Of a stretch of DNA of 64,000 nt, positions 47,805 to 55,033 are shown one piece after another. Below the pieces are notes generated by a model. That model searched no databases. It was not told where the DNA came from and was given only the letters and a program-made list of their open reading frames with translations. The stretch spans positions 78,864 to 142,863 of the forward strand of contig CAMCXT010000001.1 in NCBI GenBank assembly GCA_945883545.1, written 5' to 3'. The stretch comes from Chitinophaga pinensis. Lineage in GTDB: Bacteria; Bacteroidota; Bacteroidia; M30B66. The translations under genes were made by a program, and so were the position numbers. Each line of letters starts with the position of its first letter. The stretch's first letter is position 1.

Positions 47805-50800
47805 ATGAGGAAACTCTACAAGGCTAGTATTATCAGAGTTTTATGGGTTTTTGCGCTGTTGCTGGCATTTTCAAATGTAGCACAGTCGCAATACTGCGCA
47901 CCGTCGTACAACAATCCATGCTTCAATCCAGGCGTTACCGACGATAACATCAACAGTTTCTCCACAGCTGGAGGAATAACCAATATTTCCAACCTCAATA
48001 CTGGTTGCAACGGAACCCAACCTGCAAATTATATCTACAATTCTGGGATGACCGTTACGGTTATGCGCGGAAGTTCCTTTACAGTTCAAGTTCAATGTTC
48101 TCCAGGAACCGGATTCGCAGCATTTGCTCAAGGGTTTAAGATTTGGGTCGATTGGGATCAAAATGGTGTGTTCGAAAACAACACTTCCAACTCTTGCGAA
48201 ACATCCTTTAACAGCGGTAGCGCAGGTTTTCAAGCTTTCAATGGAACCATCAATGTGCCAACCACCGCAACTCTTGGCATGACCAGAATGCGGGTTCGTT
48301 CAGCATTCAGTACCGTTCCAGCAACTCCTTGTAGCAACGAAAACTATGGAGAAACGGAAGACTATAATGTAATGGTAGTTGCCAATCCGACCAATCCTGG
48401 CTTAACTGTTCTTCCAGTTACTATTTGCGCTGGTCAAACAGCAGCTCTATCAGCAACTGGTGGAGGACTCATCAAATGGTATATCTCTCAAACAGCGGCA
48501 TCTTTCGTAGGCATCGGACCAAACTTCACCACACCGGTCCTCAACACTACCACAACTTATTGGGTGCAAACAGTTATCAATGGCTGCCCATCACCTAGAA
48601 TTCCAGTTACGGTTACTGTGAATCCTCCTTTCAGTGTAGCACCAACAGCCTCAGTTTCCACTGTTTGTGCTGGTGAAGATGTTACCCTAACAGGTCCTGC
48701 AGGCTATGCAAGTTACACTTGGACACCTGCAGCAGTTTTTGCTAGCAACACCGTAAATCCAGCAACTGCAACTATCGGTGCAGCAACAACTTTCACACTT
48801 ACTGTTACCGATGCTGCTGGATGCAGTGGTTCAGGAACAGTGGACGTAGGTCTTGAAGCAGCTCCTCCGCTCACAATTGTCGCAAATACGCAATCTATTT
48901 GTCCAGGAGAATCAGTTACGCTTACTGCATCTGGATCTGGCAATGGTTACAATTGGCTCGCCGCCGATGGTTTAGCAGCATCAACAACTGCTTCTGTAAC
49001 GGCTACTCCTTCAGCAACCACTACATATTCAGTTACGGCAAATTCTACTTCAGGCGCCTGTCCAGCTTCAGCCTCTATAGCTGTTACTGTAAACCCACTG
49101 CCCATCGCCGATGCTGGTTTAAACACCTCAGTTTGTATTGGTTCTAGCGTTCAACTAGTAGCTACCGGCGGAGGCACATATTCTTGGTCACCTTCAAATG
49201 GACTTTCAAACACATCCATTGCTAACCCATTAGCATCACCAAATATCTCAGGAAGCTATGTTGTTACAGTAACTTCTGCAGCTGGATGCGTTGCAACTGA
49301 TGATGTTCTTGTAACTGTAAATTCACTTCCAACCGCAAATCCAGGATCTGGTGCTGCAAATTGTTCAGGAACTGGAGCGCAACTTTCAGGATCCGGAGGA
49401 ACCACTTATTTGTGGACTCCAAATACAGGACTCAACAGCCCTAATATTTCAAACCCACTCGCCACTCCTGCTGCAACAGCCGATTACACACTAACTGTTA
49501 CCGACGCCAATGGCTGTGTTTCTCCTCCATCAGCACCAATAACGGTAACTGTTTTTAGCCAACCAGCCGCGCCAACCATCACTGCATCTGGCCCACTAAC
49601 TTTCTGCCAAGGTGGTTCAGTAGATTTATCTGTTTCTGGAGGCGTTTCTTATTTATGGTCGAATGGAGCAACTGGCGCTACAACCACAATTACTGCTTCT
49701 GGAACTTATACTGTTACACTTACCGATGCCAATGGATGTACCTCTCCAGCTTCTGCAGCTGTTGTGGTGAATGTTACGCCAGGCCCCACAGCTCCAACCA
49801 TTACACCAAACGGCCCACTTGTTTTTTGTCAAGGCGGCTCTGTACAATTGTCTTCTTCAGCATCTGCTTCATACGAATGGTCTAATGGCACTTTAACGCA
49901 AACGGCCAATATTGCCGCTTCAGGATCATATACTGTTACAATCGCCGATGCTTTGGGCTGCGAAAGCACTTCGGCGCCAATAACTGTTACAGTAAATCCA
50001 TTACCAGCTTCGCCTGTTATCACAGCACAATCACCAGCAGCATTTTGTCCTGGAGGAAGCACTACACTTCAAGCTCCATCTGCTGCATCTTGGCTTTGGA
50101 ATACTGGTGCTGTAACACAAACGATTCCTGTAAATACTACTGGCGTTTTTTCGGTAACGGTTACAGATGCAAACGGATGTACTTCGCCAGTTTCTGCAAA
50201 TTTTTCAACCACGCTTTATCCATCACCTGCAGCGCCAGTAATCACAGCAAATGGCAACACCACTTTCTGCCAAGGTGAATCTGTAACGCTATCGGTTCCT
50301 GCAGCGCAATCCTATCTTTGGAATACTGGCCAAGTCTCGCAAAGTATAACGGTAAATTCTTCAGGAACATTCTCTGTTAATACCATAGATTTCAATGGCT
50401 GTCCTGCTCCATTGTCGGCCCCAGTTGTAGTGACCATGAATCCACGTCCTGTGGCTCCAACCATTACGGCAGCTTCAACCCTTAGCTTTTGCGATGGAGA
50501 AACGGTATTCCTCAATGCAAATCCAACCACAGGCATTACTTGGAGTACAGGAGCCACAGCTGCAAATATCGAAGTAGGAGCAACTGGTGCTTACACCGCA
50601 ACTTACACCGATGCAAATGGATGTGTTTCGTATGCTTCAAATTCATTGGTAGTTAATGTAATTCCTTTGGCTAATACGCCTGTAATTACCGCAAATGGCC
50701 CAACCGATTTTTGTCAAGGAGACAGTGTTATTCTTTCGTGCAGCAATGCTCCTAGTTATCTTTGGAGCAATGGCTCAACTTCCAATTCGATCACTGCTGC

Positions 50801-51653
50801 GGCCTCTGGTATCTATTCGGTAACTACAAGTTCACAATGTCCTGCTGCAGACATGACTTCCGATATTACTGTCCAGGCTCGTCCTATTCCTGTGCCTAGT
50901 ATCGATGCCAATTTGACAAAAGATTGCCTTCCATCAACAATCAATTTTTCAGCAAGTACTTCCGGTATTGGTCCATTCTTGTTCGATTGGTCTTTTGGAG
51001 ATGGCAATTCTGCTACTTCAGCTCAACCTTCACACGAATATATTGAGGCTGGCGATTATTCAATTACACTCACCCTCACCGATGTAATTGGTTGCACAGG
51101 TTCCCAAACAATCCCGAATTTTATTGAGATTTTACCAAGGGCAAATCTTCAATTTACAATCGATCCACCTGTTACAACGCTAAGTGATCCATTGGTTACG
51201 TTTACAGGATTAACCAACAATGCATCTGCCGAATCGTGGGAAATAGAAGGCTTTGGAATTTTCAATGAAGATCAAGTTGAAATCCTTTTCGAAGATACAG
51301 GCGCCTATGTGGTTACATATTCAGCCATAACTGCCGAAGGTTGTGAGGCTTCTAAACGCGATACTGTGCTCATTTTCGATGAATTCGCGCTGTATATCCC
51401 TGGAGCTTTCTCGCCAAACGAAGACGGTTTGAATGATGTTTTCATTCCTGTAGCCTCAGGGTTTGAAGCAGAAGACTACGAATTTCAGGTTTTCAATCGC
51501 TGGGGACAAAGAATCTTCTTCACCAATCAACTCGGTGAAGGTTGGACAGGAAACGATGTTAAGCAAGATGTTTACATCTGGACGATCACCGGCAAAAGCC
51601 GCATCAACAAAGAAACTGTTGAGTACAAAGGAAGTGTGACGCTGATTAACTAA
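47805..51653 (+). CDS. Large secreted adhesin-like protein: GEVED domain, ~10 Ig-like repeats, PKD domain and gliding-motility-type (T9SS type B) C-terminal domain
   Basis: Signal peptide. 'GETEDYNVMV' GEVED. Repeated ~78-aa units with 'C.G.SV.L.A.GG..Y.W'. 'FDWSFGDGNS' PKD. C-terminal 'YIPGAFSPNEDGLNDVF'. Confidence 0.75.
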   Translation: MRKLYKASIIRVLWVFALLLAFSNVAQSQYCAPSYNNPCFNPGVTDDNINSFSTAGGITNISNLNTGCNGTQPANYIYNSGMTVTVMRGSSFTVQVQCSPGTGFAAFAQGFKIWVDWDQNGVFENNTSNSCETSFNSGSAGFQAFNGTINVPTTATLGMTRMRVRSAFSTVPATPCSNENYGETEDYNVMVVANPTNPGLTVLPVTICAGQTAALSATGGGLIKWYISQTAASFVGIGPNFTTPVLNTTTTYWVQTVINGCPSPRIPVTVTVNPPFSVAPTASVSTVCAGEDVTLTGPAGYASYTWTPAAVFASNTVNPATATIGAATTFTLTVTDAAGCSGSGTVDVGLEAAPPLTIVANTQSICPGESVTLTASGSGNGYNWLAADGLAASTTASVTATPSATTTYSVTANSTSGACPASASIAVTVNPLPIADAGLNTSVCIGSSVQLVATGGGTYSWSPSNGLSNTSIANPLASPNISGSYVVTVTSAAGCVATDDVLVTVNSLPTANPGSGAANCSGTGAQLSGSGGTTYLWTPNTGLNSPNISNPLATPAATADYTLTVTDANGCVSPPSAPITVTVFSQPAAPTITASGPLTFCQGGSVDLSVSGGVSYLWSNGATGATTTITASGTYTVTLTDANGCTSPASAAVVVNVTPGPTAPTITPNGPLVFCQGGSVQLSSSASASYEWSNGTLTQTANIAASGSYTVTIADALGCESTSAPITVTVNPLPASPVITAQSPAAFCPGGSTTLQAPSAASWLWNTGAVTQTIPVNTTGVFSVTVTDANGCTSPVSANFSTTLYPSPAAPVITANGNTTFCQGESVTLSVPAAQSYLWNTGQVSQSITVNSSGTFSVNTIDFNGCPAPLSAPVVVTMNPRPVAPTITAASTLSFCDGETVFLNANPTTGITWSTGATAANIEVGATGAYTATYTDANGCVSYASNSLVVNVIPLANTPVITANGPTDFCQGDSVILSCSNAPSYLWSNGSTSNSITAAASGIYSVTTSSQCPAADMTSDITVQARPIPVPSIDANLTKDCLPSTINFSASTSGIGPFLFDWSFGDGNSATSAQPSHEYIEAGDYSITLTLTDVIGCTGSQTIPNFIEILPRANLQFTIDPPVTTLSDPLVTFTGLTNNASAESWEIEGFGIFNEDQVEILFEDTGAYVVTYSAITAEGCEASKRDTVLIFDEFALYIPGAFSPNEDGLNDVFIPVASGFEAEDYEFQVFNRWGQRIFFTNQLGEGWTGNDVKQDVYIWTITGKSRINKETVEYKGSVTLIN

Positions 51654-51659
51654 GAAATC

Positions 51660-52058
51660 ACTCCACCACACTTAACCCAAAACTCCCATTCATCACAAAT
51701 GAATCGTCTCTCTCCCGCGGAGAGAGATAAGAGAGAGAGGTAACAGAAAGCGCGTTCAATCTCCAAAGCCACAAGCAATTCGAAAGTTCTAAACTACCTC
51801 AAATGTATCGTCTCTCTCCCTTGGAGAGAAATAAGAGAGTGAGGTAACAGAAAGCGCATTCAATCTCCAAAGCCACAATCAAATCGAAAGCTCTAAACTA
51901 CCTCCAATGTACCGTCTCTCTCCCGCGGAGAGAGATAAGAGAGAGAGGTAAATGAGAGTCCACGAGAATCAATCAGCCACACTTAACCCAAAACTCCCAT
52001 TCATCACAAATGAATCGTCTCTCTCCCGCGGAGAGAGATAAGAGAGAGAGAGGTAAAA
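51660..52058. repeat. Tandem array of four hairpin-bearing elements at 104-bp period (non-coding)
   Basis: The hairpin core 'cgtctctctccc[gcgg/ttgg]agagag ataagagag(a/t)gagg taa' recurs at 51705, 51809, 51913 and 52016. Units 1-2 are ~95% identical over 104 bp. Unit 3 diverges into a copy of the 5'-flank segment. Confidence 0.8.
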
Positions 52059-52093
52059 AAACAAAAAATCCGGCCCCTTTTCAGGAACCGGAT
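52055..52093 (-). terminator. Rho-independent terminator for the minus-strand T9SS cargo gene (possibly bidirectional)
   Basis: On the minus strand, the hairpin atccgg(N14)ccggat is followed by a U-run, 24 nt downstream of the stop at 52117. Confidence 0.55.
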
Positions 52094-52116
52094 TTTCATT
52101 GGTTGTTGTTGAAGAA

Positions 52117-54027
52117 TTAGAGTTTAACCGCTCTTAAAGTTTGATTGCTGTTTGAAGAGCGTACGCTGATCAAGTAAGTTCCAGCTTTAAGATCGCTACC
52201 GTTAATCATGTAACGGCTAGAGTTATTTGCATTTACTGTTACTGTTTCGATGCTCACGGTTTGGCCTACTGTGTTTACTACAGTAATTTCAAACTTCTCA
52301 TCTGTGCTGCTAGTAGTAAGGTTTACCGAAAGCTCGCTGTTGAAAGGGTTCGGAGCGATGGTGATTTCAGTAACTTCATCAGGAGTTGAAGTGTTGTCTG
52401 CAAAACGTGCTGCTGGAGCTGAACAACCAGGCTGATCTACAATCACAGCATCAACATCGAATCCATCTGCACTTCCTGGGAATCTTGTGCTGCTTGTTGC
52501 AGATGCATCAGTGATACGAAGGTAAGAGAAGTAAGCAAGACCTGCAGATGAAACATCGATCGATTCGTCAAGACAAGCTTCGTCTTCAATTGCGAACCAG
52601 TTGATATTGTCTAATGAAATCTCAAGACGAGCAGTTTCAGGATAGTTGTTGCAAGTTGGGTTACCGTAAGATGTTTCAACAATCGTGACATCAGTTCCAG
52701 TTTTGTCGAATACTAGGTAATCGAAGCTTAAGATAATCTGACCACCAAAACCAAGGCTTACAAAGTTTACTTCATCTGTTCCTTGTGGAGCACCAAGTGC
52801 ATTGTCTGCATTGCTACGTGATGTTGGTACTGCATTGCCATTCTTCATGTCCCCTTGTGTGAAATCTTCAACAGCTGTAGCAAATTGGTTGCTCAAAGCT
52901 GCTGGTACTGGGTTCAATTCTTCACCATGCAAACAAACAACACCATCTAAATCATAACCGTCAGCCAATCCACCACCGAAAGGGTGAGAAATATCAGAGA
53001 TATCTTGAAGCTTCACATATTGAATCCAACCAAGTGTCTTGAAATCGAAGAAGGTGTTCTGACATCCATCGCCCAACCAAATCCAGTTGCAACCATCTTG
53101 CGAACCAAATGCACGAATCTTTTCAGGGTAACGGTTGCAGTTTCCTGAGTAGTTTCCAAATGTTGTTTCAACTACATAAAGATCATCTCCGTCTCCATTG
53201 TGAATAGGGTAAGCAAATTTCAAGGTAACAGCACCACCAAATCCTAGCGACAAGAAATTGTAGTTCGAAGTAGCTACATCACTGTTTTCTGGCATACCCA
53301 AAGCATTTGCAGTGTTTAAACGTGCTGGGTCAATTGGTGTGAGTAAATCGTTCGTAGTTCCAGGAGTAAAGTTGATCACTTCAGTTGCAACACAAGCTGC
53401 AGGTGTTACAGGCAAGGAATCTACTGGAGTTGTAGTTGTGTCGTTGTCAGTTACATCGTCATTGTCATCATCATCGCTATCGTCGTTGTCATCATTGTCG
53501 TCATCGTTATCGTCATTGTCATCATCATCGCTATCGTCGTTGTCATCATTGTCGTCATCGTTATCGCTGTCATCATTGTCATCATCATTATCGCTGTCAT
53601 CATTGTCATCATCATCGCTATCGTCGTTGTCATCATTGTCGTCATCGTTTTCGCTGTCGTCATTGTCATCATCATCGCTATCGTCATTGTCGTCATCGTT
53701 ATCGCTGTCATCATTGTCATCATCATCACTATCGTCGTTGTCATCATCGTCACTTTCCTCGTCATCATCGTTGCTTTGAGTGCAAGCGCCAAGAACATCA
53801 CCGTGTCCTAAATGTGCATTCACTGCTGCAGGTGCTACATAAATCGTAATGTAGCTTCCGTTTCCTGTTTGGTGACAAATTGCAACTGTATTGTTGCCAT
53901 TTCCTTGCCCTGGAGTTCTCTGTGATGATTCTTCAGTACGAACATTCACGCGGTTGTGCTGAGCGCCCAAGTTATTTACCAATGATAGGATCATCAGAAT
54001 CAAAAGTGTTGCGACTTTTTTTAGCAT
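52117..54027 (-). CDS. Secreted protein with ~130-aa poly-Asp/Asn/Ser acidic tract, two tandem ~95-aa beta domains and T9SS type-A C-terminal sorting domain
   Basis: Signal peptide, 'DDDNDDSDDDD...' low-complexity tract, and duplicated segments 'LGMPENSD..SLGFGGAV...' and 'LGAPQGTDE..SLGFGGQI...'. The C-terminus 'ITIAPNPF...' is a Por-type tail. Confidence 0.65.
   Translation of the reverse strand: MLKKVATLLILMILSLVNNLGAQHNRVNVRTEESSQRTPGQGNGNNTVAICHQTGNGSYITIYVAPAAVNAHLGHGDVLGACTQSNDDDEESDDDDNDDSDDDDNDDSDNDDDNDDSDDDDNDDSENDDDNDDNDDSDDDDNDDSDNDDDNDDSDNDDDNDDNDDSDDDDNDDNDDDNDDNDDSDDDDNDDVTDNDTTTTPVDSLPVTPAACVATEVINFTPGTTNDLLTPIDPARLNTANALGMPENSDVATSNYNFLSLGFGGAVTLKFAYPIHNGDGDDLYVVETTFGNYSGNCNRYPEKIRAFGSQDGCNWIWLGDGCQNTFFDFKTLGWIQYVKLQDISDISHPFGGGLADGYDLDGVVCLHGEELNPVPAALSNQFATAVEDFTQGDMKNGNAVPTSRSNADNALGAPQGTDEVNFVSLGFGGQIILSFDYLVFDKTGTDVTIVETSYGNPTCNNYPETARLEISLDNINWFAIEDEACLDESIDVSSAGLAYFSYLRITDASATSSTRFPGSADGFDVDAVIVDQPGCSAPAARFADNTSTPDEVTEITIAPNPFNSELSVNLTTSSTDEKFEITVVNTVGQTVSIETVTVNANNSSRYMINGSDLKAGTYLISVRSSNSNQTLRAVKL
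53441..53775. repeat. Coding-sequence microsatellite-like tandem repeat (GAT/GAC-rich, period ~18/60 nt) encoding the poly-D/N/S tract
   Basis: Iterated 'gtcatcatcatcgctatcgtcgttgtcatcattgtcgtcatcgttatcg'-type units are visible in the raw sequence. All three other-frame ORFs here are artefacts of this repeat. Confidence 0.8.
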
Positions 54028-54223
54028 AGTGTTTTTGGTTAGGTTAGTTGTCTCCCTTTACCCAAATCATGTAAATAGAGTTTCATTCTTACATCATTTT
54101 TTTCCCCTATCCAAGTAACCTTAAATCGTATGTTGCATAAAATCAGGCAAATAAAAAAATAAGATTCTCGCAATAATGTCCTTCGCCTTACAAATGCAAG
54201 GTTACCTTCGTTGAATAAACCAA

Positions 54224-54712
54224 TTGCCGCCAGCCTTCAAGACCATGAACCGAACCTTAAAACTACTCATCAGCATTCTCGCTCCACTTGTTGTTGGCGC
54301 CGTGGCCGGATTCTACACAGTAAGCGAAACTGGAACATGGTACAGCTACTTGAACAAGCCTTTCTTCAATCCGCCCAATTGGTTGTTTGGCCCCGTTTGG
54401 ACCATACTATATATACTGATGGGGATTTCCTGTTTCCTCATTTGGAGCAAACCCTCAACAGCCCAAAGAAGTCGAGCCCTTACCATCTATGCCATTCAGC
54501 TGTTCCTCAATTTCTGGTGGAGCATCATTTTCTTCGCTCTCCATCAGCCAGCATACGCACTTATCGAAATCGCCTTCATGTGGATTGCCATTTTCCTCAC
54601 CATTCGCGCATTTCTCCCAATCAACAAAGTAGCAGCTTGGCTTCTCATCCCATACCTAATGTGGGTAAGTTTCGCCTCTATCCTCAACGCTGCCATCGTG
54701 TGGCTCAACTAA
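54224..54712 (+). CDS. tspO: TspO/MBR family tryptophan-rich sensory protein
   Basis: 162 aa with five TM helices. 'PPNWLFGPVWTILY' and 'FFALH' are typical TspO motifs. Confidence 0.8.
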   Translation: MPPAFKTMNRTLKLLISILAPLVVGAVAGFYTVSETGTWYSYLNKPFFNPPNWLFGPVWTILYILMGISCFLIWSKPSTAQRSRALTIYAIQLFLNFWWSIIFFALHQPAYALIEIAFMWIAIFLTIRAFLPINKVAAWLLIPYLMWVSFASILNAAIVWLN

Positions 54713-54732: not shown

Positions 54733-54822
54733 TTGGGCGCGCCCCTCTGGGTCACGTGCTTGGCTGCAGTCCACTCCGCAAGCTTCGTGGAGCTGACTTG
54801 CCGCGCCCGTTCGCGCGGGCAC
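54733..54822 (-). ncRNA. ffs: Candidate small SRP RNA (ffs)
   Basis: GC-rich ~90-nt island. On the minus strand 'GUCAGCUCC...GCAGCCAAGCACGUGAC' resembles E. coli 4.5S 'GUCAGGUCC...GCAGCCAAGGCAGAUGAC'. The terminal G/C-rich arms 'gggcgcg/cgcgccc' are complementary. Confidence 0.4.
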
Positions 54823-54854
54823 TACCAATAATATGTATTGCAAGTAAGGATTGA

Positions 54855-54884
54855 TGATCGCTTTCCAAAACGATCATCAATGTT
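54855..54884. other. Perfect 10-bp inverted repeat (ttgatgatcg N10 cgatcatcaa) between the SRP RNA candidate and tRNA-Leu
   Basis: Seen directly in the sequence. It could be a processing or termination hairpin. Confidence 0.5.
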
Positions 54885-54953
54885 AAATCCAAACAACAAC
54901 CAGCAAAACGATTAAATAAGAAAGGCCGCCAATTTCTTGACAGCCTTTTCTTG

Positions 54954-55033
54954 TACCCGGAGCCGGAGTCGAACCGGCACGGTTTCCCACAGGTGTTTGA
55001 GACCAGCGCGTCTACCAATTCCGCCATCCGGGC
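54954..55033 (-). tRNA. tRNA-Leu (anticodon CAA), type II with long variable arm
   Basis: The minus-strand sequence 'gcccggatggcggaattggtagacgcgctggtCTCAAACacctg...gccggttcgactccggctccgggta' has an acceptor stem that pairs, a D-loop 'AATTGGTAGA', a T-loop 'GGTTCGACTCC', and an anticodon loop 'cuCAAac'. There is one U-U mismatch in the anticodon stem. Confidence 0.75.

Follow-up and report, generated by a model that had tools for sequence, protein, structure and literature searches.

What does an aspartate-dominated tract of more than 100 residues do in an exported bacterial protein, and how has its length come to differ between near-identical proteins? The question is raised by an open reading frame (ORF) on the minus strand (52117..54027) of the 64,000-nucleotide stretch of contig CAMCXT010000001.1 analysed here, which we call the window. 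The ORF list gives it as running from ATG to stop and encoding 636 amino acids. By analogy with characterized cargo, the product is a cell-surface or secreted protein exported by the T9SS (type IX secretion system) of an uncultured freshwater-type Flavobacteriales bacterium. A small Cys/His module at its N-terminus is joined by the acidic tract to a tandem pair of jelly-roll domains, hereafter the core. The composition of the tract is conserved among relatives and its length is not, and we cautiously favour the view that it serves as a polyanionic spacer. The parts of the protein are as follows, in window coordinates:

52117..54027, minus strand: complete coding sequence of the T9SS cargo protein, 636 amino acids plus stop codon (ORF list)
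53962..54027, minus strand: predicted signal peptide, residues 1-22, MLKKVATLLILMILSLVNNLGA, cleaved before Q; read from the sequence by its basic N-terminus, hydrophobic core and A-x-A-like cleavage site
53776..53895, minus strand: Cys/His ββα mini-domain (the module), residues 45-84
53455..53775, minus strand: poly-Asp tract, residues 85-191 (107 residues); its DNA repeats imperfectly in tandem (periods 24, 51, 54 and 87 bp)
53404..53454, minus strand: Thr/Pro-rich hinge, residues 192-208, VTDNDTTTTPVDSLPVT, kept in close orthologues
52912..53403, minus strand: core domain 1, residues ~209-372; galactose-binding-like jelly roll, BtuH/CBM32-like
52408..52896, minus strand: core domain 2, residues ~378-540; paralogue of domain 1 with a sub-threshold F5_F8_type_C match
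52120..52359, minus strand: T9SS type A C-terminal sorting domain, residues ~557-636 (PF18962 and TIGR04183)

This order of parts (signal peptide, Cys/His module, acidic tract, two paralogous domains, Por-type tail) had been given correctly in a preliminary description made from the sequence alone. The same 636-residue sequence also occurs as P0281, an NCBI record from a 149-kb contig that was found as a cluster member.

Composition and repeat structure of the acidic tract

Counted as a pure D/N/S/E run, the tract comprises 73 D, 20 N, 11 S and 3 E in its 107 residues, with a net charge of about -76. It reaches 116 residues when the VTDNDTTTT tail is included, which is shorter than the ~130 residues first estimated. 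Fully extended, the 107 residues would span roughly 35-40 nm (an estimate at ~0.36 nm per residue). The preliminary description had further read the tract as DDDNDDSDDDD repeated about 20 times and its DNA as a near-perfect repeat, and neither reading survived measurement. Tandem Repeats Finder resolved the DNA into 11.8 copies of 24 bp with 71% matches, corresponding to ~12 imperfect 8-residue units, and into higher-order periods of 51, 54 and 87 bp with 74-82% matches and 7-13% indels. Since the longest exact repeat is only 58 bp, the tract DNA is degenerate (71-82% matches) rather than near-perfect. Because the repeat is codon-periodic, three further ORFs lying over the tract on the opposite strand or in other frames (53312..53779, 53436..53849 and 53451..53801) are regarded as spurious by-products. 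Matches of the whole protein to the PDB sequences of CHRAC-16, TIC100 and nucleophosmin were discarded as acidic low-complexity matches.

Length variation between near-identical alleles

Linker length, counted between the module's last residue and the TTTTP hinge, was compared within four groups consisting of clusters of at least 90% identity plus close relatives. All length comparisons rest on short-read metagenome assemblies. The groups are:

Group A (window protein and P0001): core identity 100%; linkers of 109 and 72 residues
Group B: core identity 95.7-100%; linkers of 44, 46, 47, 64, 118, 123, 141 and 144 residues
Group C: core identity 96.8-100%; linkers of 36, 56, 56, 107 and 107 residues
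Group D: core identity 96.6-99.5%; linkers of 54, 59, 61 and 61 residues

The linker thus ranges from 36 to 144 residues on cores that are 95.7-100% identical within groups. Identical cores were accompanied by linkers of 109 and 72 residues in group A, and by linkers of 144 and 123 residues in P0291 and P0294 of group B. The existence of length-variable alleles, which the preliminary description had suggested from the repetitive DNA, is therefore strongly borne out. The reading frame is kept in all 20 alleles compared, and the repeat periods are multiples of three. These in-frame alleles therefore fit slippage or unequal recombination between codon-periodic repeats. On/off phase variation through repeat changes that shift the frame or the promoter spacing was ruled out, every compared allele being in frame.

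The difference could be located at nucleotide level in a syntenic metagenome contig, L001. Aligned with window positions 51601..54100, L001 showed zero mismatches over 2.5 kb and two indels, one of which lies in the tract:

53617..53727, minus strand: 111-bp (37-codon) segment within the tract, present in the window and not in L001 (pairwise alignment)

The edges of this indel coincide with a 29-bp exact direct repeat (53588-53616 = 53699-53727). Simple de Bruijn collapse is an unlikely origin of the 111-bp difference: no exact repeat exceeds 58 bp, whereas the name of contig L001 implies assembly at k = 141. Two other contigs point to trouble in assembling the region: L003, from a metagenome-assembled genome (MAG), begins inside the tract (L003 1..180) with near-perfect units of ~48 bp, and L004 spans the core only, its match starting at query residue 216. 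These breaks suggest that short-read assemblies are interrupted at the tract repeat. Given such contigs and the short-read basis, individual tract lengths may be wrong.

The tract among relatives

A query comprising the core (residues ~201-552) retrieved 541 homologues, the best 120 of which were surveyed for the module and the tract. The module is present in 20 of these 120 closest relatives, and 18 of the 20 carry an acidic tract of 36-87 residues with a D+E content of 53-79%; among near-identical cluster members D+E is 56-74%. The repeat units are lineage-specific, for example DDDNDDS, DDDNDDEG and NDDGDD. In the remaining two module-bearing relatives, P0018 and P0021, the tract is absent and the module runs directly into the hinge. 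Composition is conserved and sequence and length are not; together with the two tractless relatives, this comparative picture speaks more for a spacer than for a specific binding site.

Other members of the family differ at the N-terminus: in place of module plus tract, some have an Ig-like region or a fasciclin domain, some a third core copy, and others no appendage. The variety of types across members indicates that the N-terminal appendage is freely exchanged in the family. In one sub-branch (P0025-P0038), a third copy of the core jelly roll is located N-terminally and replaces the module and the tract.

Tandem core domains

The two core domains share 36% identity (BLASTP, E 1e-27), which upholds the duplication noted in the preliminary description; the domain size given there, ~95 residues, was too small, as each copy measures ~165 residues. 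Among the best 120 of the 541 core homologues, nearly all carry a T9SS tail, and the names, where given, are 'hypothetical protein', 'T9SS type A sorting domain-containing protein' and, once, 'fasciclin domain-containing protein'. Core relatives in named genomes belong only to Flavobacteriales or Bacteroidia MAGs.

An AlphaFold2 model of the core, based on a 69-sequence alignment, consists of two β-sandwich domains (pLDDT 90.6, pTM 0.88), with low pLDDT at its hinge-side start. Foldseek searches with this model returned, with E-values between 1e-8 and 1e-5, the tandem discoidin/jelly-roll proteins PAPP-A, allantoicase and neuropilin b1b2, and the jelly-roll β-sandwich of the core superimposes on solved members of the F5/8 type C / CBM32 group. 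Sequence identity to this group (neuropilin b1b2, allantoicase) is 8-14%. Likeness to it is seen at the profile level as sub-threshold PF00754 (F5_F8_type_C) matches in 47 of 69 family members; every member examined falls short of the gathering threshold of 28.2 bits, the window protein scoring 16.1 and the best examined member 27.7. By contrast, DUF4465 (PF14717, BtuJ-type) matched none of the 69 members at E <= 1. The preliminary description had allowed for the duplicated domains belonging to a well-characterised family with known function; they match none above threshold.

A second likeness concerns BtuH. BtuH binds vitamin B12 through its BtuH domain, which has only modest similarity to the CBM32 of AlyQ (PMC8941943). 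In BtuH2 of Bacteroides thetaiotaomicron (PDB 7BIZ), the residues contacting B12 are Gln333, Asn399, His476, Tyr510, Trp511 and Trp577 (PMC8941943), and BtuG1 carries a fused BtuH domain, the BtuH-homologous extension comprising ~250 residues (PMC10404256). Searched against PDB sequences, our family profile matched this BtuG1 H-domain (8blw_B, that is, 8BLW chain B; E 1.3e-4) as the sole structure apart from sorting domains, with the alignment block V.xY.P ... SLG(G)FGG.I.L.F...I.N..G.D. An hhalign comparison of the family with BtuH-like sequences gave 90.2% probability and E 1.5e-6 over 90 columns, the BtuH-like profile being a thin one of five sequences built from fragments (the BtuG1-H fragment query yielded 11 short fragments). 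This profile similarity is weak but significant. Two motifs of the BtuH-like sequences, PAPGQF (five of five) and GNA (four of five), are absent from 138 aligned family domain sequences. Both groups consist of surface-exposed Bacteroidota proteins, whereas BtuH is lipid-anchored and the core family is tandem and T9SS-exported. Our reading is that, inside the galactose-binding-like superfold, the core domains are probably distant kin of the BtuH-type domain.

The N-terminal Cys/His module

Across the subfamily, C, H, GNG, TI, AHLxHGD, G and C are invariant in the 40-residue module segment, which is predicted to fold as a β-hairpin plus helix (pLDDT 86.8). Neither Pfam-A nor NCBIfam nor the PDB sequences gave a match to it, and scanning multi-copy proteins did not change this. 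A profile of 43 positions was then run against 1.84 billion proteins at E <= 0.001 and retrieved 7,549 cluster representatives; many of these hold several copies, and a single protein can show as many as 21 matched stretches. The window segment, which served as the alignment seed, fits this profile, having the conserved C, H, H-x2-HGD and C. SprB repeats, Big_7 domains or a T9SS tail accompany the module in some of these proteins. As a very widespread repeat with no Pfam-A, NCBIfam or PDB counterpart, the ~38-residue module ('ICH...TI.V...A..AHL.HGD..G.C') is a candidate new domain family. Its Cys pair probably forms a disulfide, and its His/Asp set may bind metal.

In 149 unrelated module-bearing proteins (P0121-P0269), about 5% of the inter-module linkers are acidic and the remainder are Pro/Thr/Ser-rich or mixed. 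Since linkers elsewhere are mostly non-acidic, the poly-Asp linker is a speciality of the Flavobacteriales subfamily and not of the module.

Export signals

The N-terminus (MLKKVATLLILMILSLVNNLGAQ) reads as a Sec signal peptide, judged by eye. The C-terminus scored 41.2 bits against Por_Secre_tail PF18962 (cut-off 27) and 30.6 bits against TIGR04183 (cut-off 23), and the family profile also matched the solved T9SS C-terminal domain structures 8glk_D and 8glj_D. The identification as T9SS cargo in the preliminary description is therefore supported by two libraries above curated cut-offs. Signal peptide and Por_Secre_tail/TIGR04183 tail are shared with known type A cargo such as the gingipains of Porphyromonas gingivalis and the secreted enzymes of Flavobacterium, whereas the passenger domains here are uncharacterised. 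The type A C-terminal domain cargo of P. gingivalis is cleaved and attached to anionic lipopolysaccharide (PMC9143113, PMC8545088). Because P. gingivalis cargo is linked in this way, the 636-residue protein may likewise be anchored at the cell surface.

Gene neighbourhood

Just downstream of the gene, a putative terminator was found:

52064..52097, minus strand: terminator-like hairpin of 15 pairs followed by a T-run, 20 nt past the stop codon

Its position just past the stop codon suggests, on sequence grounds, that the tract gene is the last or only one in its transcript. No operon was found at the gene, and no partner gene is conserved across six family loci. One flank carries TspO, ribose-phosphate pyrophosphokinase, ribosomal protein L25 and peptidyl-tRNA hydrolase. 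The convergent neighbour (47805..51653, plus strand) encodes a type B cargo of 1,282 amino acids with GEVED, several Ig_7, PKD and a CHU_C tail, and this convergent arrangement is kept in L001. As a further T9SS cargo, this neighbour lends indirect support to the presence of T9SS machinery in the genome. In the window, no regulatory RNA including a cobalamin riboswitch was detected, the sole Rfam match being a tRNA. At the six family loci, no btuB or btuG lies beside family members, the neighbours being housekeeping genes or other T9SS cargo; nor did the family loci examined show glycoside hydrolases, a polysaccharide utilization locus (PUL) context or metal-related neighbouring genes.

The TspO/MBR gene (54224..54712, plus strand) is divergent and starts ~200 bp upstream of the tract gene. 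TspO/MBR family proteins bind tetrapyrroles. The arrangement is the same in L001, and a same-sized ORF occupies this place in L002, which carries an orthologue of 86% identity; TspO is not found beside distant members. The adjacency is most likely plain synteny.

The intergenic region between the two convergent T9SS cargo genes (51696..52050) contains a 104-bp tandem repeat of 3.4 copies with 81-90% matches. Each unit holds a hairpin with a 9-bp stem (TCTCTCTCC-GCG-GGAGAGAGA), and the 40-nt core of the unit is absent from the window outside this array. L001 is one unit shorter, owing to a 103-bp indel (51948..52050) with a 35-bp exact repeat at its edges. A tRNA gene (54954..55033, minus strand; Rfam 51.5 bits) overlaps a spurious ORF of 91 amino acids (54752..55027). 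Elsewhere, distant family members adjoin runs of other Por_Secre_tail proteins, and at two loci they have a small protein with LTD and T9SS tail and a TonB-dependent receptor nearby (L012 10113..15207; L007 2661..3683 and L012 4374..5396).

Role of the linker

Among known systems, the Ser-Asp (SD) stalk of the staphylococcal Clf/Sdr proteins is by analogy the nearest functional counterpart, though the tract fails its defining composition and position. The SD region is a flexible stalk presenting a binding domain (PMC5717387; see also PMC10367597). Like the tract, it is a long, acidic, low-complexity segment of a surface protein, encoded by imperfect tandem DNA repeats and variable in length between strains. 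The SD stalk is a strict Ser-Asp dipeptide repeat, whereas the tract consists of 68% D, 19% N and 10% S. The stalk is located between the binding domain and the wall anchor, whereas the tract is N-terminal to the core with the anchor signal at the C-terminus. Staphylococci employ sortase and LPXTG; the host of the tract is Gram-negative and uses the T9SS. We know of no counterpart of SD glycosylation (SdgA/B) for the poly-Asp tract. In the literature searched, no T9SS cargo with a poly-Asp linker turned up, and the motif strings also gave no match.

We lean, not strongly, towards regarding the linker as a hypervariable, composition-dependent and length-tolerant polyanionic spacer that tethers the module to a binding-type core, and not as a dedicated mineral-binding domain. 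In this view the conserved working part of the protein is the pair of ~165-residue β-jelly-roll domains, a ligand-binding fold, followed by the type A sorting domain. The linker, presumably disordered, would be an electrostatically stiffened spacer ('entropic bristle') that keeps the module off the core and off the anionic cell surface, a function set by composition and length and not by exact sequence. Through slippage or unequal recombination at short direct repeats, the imperfect codon-periodic repeats may gain or lose blocks in frame, and the tether length would drift, or be tuned, between strains. Low-affinity binding of Ca2+/Mg2+ counter-ions would be unavoidable for such a polyanion, as a side property and not as the selected function. 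Three points weigh against a spacer. In a C-terminally anchored T9SS protein, a classical stalk would separate the anchor from the main domains; here the tract instead separates the core from a 40-residue module. The near-universal bias for Asp, and not for Glu or Pro/Thr, hints at selection for an Asp-specific trait such as Ca2+ coordination. Finally, given the short-read basis and contigs L003 and L004, part of the length variation may stem from errors of assembly.

The Asp bias is also the best argument for the main rival, the idea that the poly-Asp tract is itself functional, either as a high-capacity, low-affinity store of Ca2+ or other metal or as a surface for mineral (such as calcite) or cationic polymers, as the preliminary description had suggested; the His-rich module might add a transition-metal site. 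Asp-rich eukaryotic proteins (calsequestrin tails, aspein, phosphophoryn) bind Ca2+ or mineral. The extreme composition (73 Asp in 107 residues, net charge about -76), its retention in 18 of 20 module-bearing relatives, and the invariant C, H, H-x2-H, D and C of the module, which are compatible with a metal site, are all in line with such a role. We nevertheless consider it unlikely: neither sequence nor length is under visible constraint (linkers of 36-144 residues on near-identical proteins), which speaks against a structured binding site; the tract is missing from two orthologues, no metal-related genes neighbour the loci examined, and the module elsewhere has mostly non-acidic linkers. A different proposal is that the hypervariability is adaptive and that the gene is a contingency-type locus diversifying a surface protein, for example in its reach or for evasion of phages or grazers to which the protein serves as a receptor. 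The large length differences on 99-100% identical cores, the direct repeats at the indel junctions and the predicted surface exposure would all be expected of such a locus. This proposal seems to us quite improbable, however, because all variants are in frame and hence give no on/off switching, a featureless polyanion is an unlikely recognition epitope, and neutral repeat instability accounts for the same data. The non-coding 104-bp repeat also varies between the window and L001, which points to generic instability or assembly effects.

The likeness of the core to BtuH raises the further thought that cobamides (vitamin B12) or some related tetrapyrrole are the ligands of the tandem domains, making the protein a T9SS-displayed micronutrient scavenger. 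The match of the family profile to 8blw_B, the hhalign probability of 90.2% and the B12 binding of the BtuH domain (PMC8941943) speak for it. However, the similarity is limited to ~90 columns in the N-terminal half, and we do not transfer B12 binding to the core because its domains have ~165 residues against the ~250 of the BtuH-homologous extension in BtuG1 (PMC10404256) and lack PAPGQF and GNA, because 47 of 69 members lean towards F5_F8_type_C and none towards DUF4465, and because no B12 locus, riboswitch or PUL, including btuB or btuG, occurs near the six loci or, for the riboswitch, in the window. Moreover, the authors of the BtuH study regard its similarity to CBM32 (AlyQ) as unrelated to B12 binding (PMC8941943). 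Cobamide binding is thus very unlikely. A combined alternative, in which the protein would be a T9SS-anchored 'fishing line' for micronutrients scarce in freshwater, with BtuH-like capture of cobamides or tetrapyrroles, a module binding a transition metal and a Ca2+-loaded tether, tuned by in-frame slippage, setting the capture radius, is likewise highly doubtful. That the tract is an assembly artefact, collapsed or expanded, had been raised in the preliminary description. L003 ends within the tract, L004 contains only the core from residue 216 onward, and the window and L001 differ over 2.5 kb only by two repeat-unit indels, all of which could be read in this way; yet in more than 18 independent assemblies an acidic tract occupies this position in frame, its repeat units differing by lineage, the exact repeats are well under k = 141, and the frame is continuous into conserved domains on either side. 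An artefactual tract is accordingly extremely improbable: its existence is firm, and any exact length could still be an artefact.

Significance

Each ingredient, whether T9SS cargo, jelly-roll binding domain or acidic low-complexity linker, is of a kind already known, and none of our findings overturns current understanding. Their combination, an extreme and hypervariable poly-Asp linker in a large uncharacterised T9SS cargo family with an uncurated, very widespread Cys/His repeat, was not found described in the searched literature. As a practical warning, tract lengths taken from short-read MAGs are unreliable. If the 'fishing line' interpretation were true, the protein would represent a previously undescribed class of secreted scavenger and would provide the first function for the Cys/His repeat.

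The protein offers a natural example of a surface-protein linker whose composition is kept while its length shifts up to fourfold among near-identical strains, and it is of use in studying the evolution of disordered polyanionic tethers and the factors that set their length. The analysis also exposes a widespread ~38-residue Cys/His ββα repeat lacking a Pfam or NCBIfam model and a solved structure. Finally, it defines an uncharacterised T9SS cargo family of more than 500 proteins with tandem BtuH/CBM32-like domains, which is common in uncultured freshwater Flavobacteriales.

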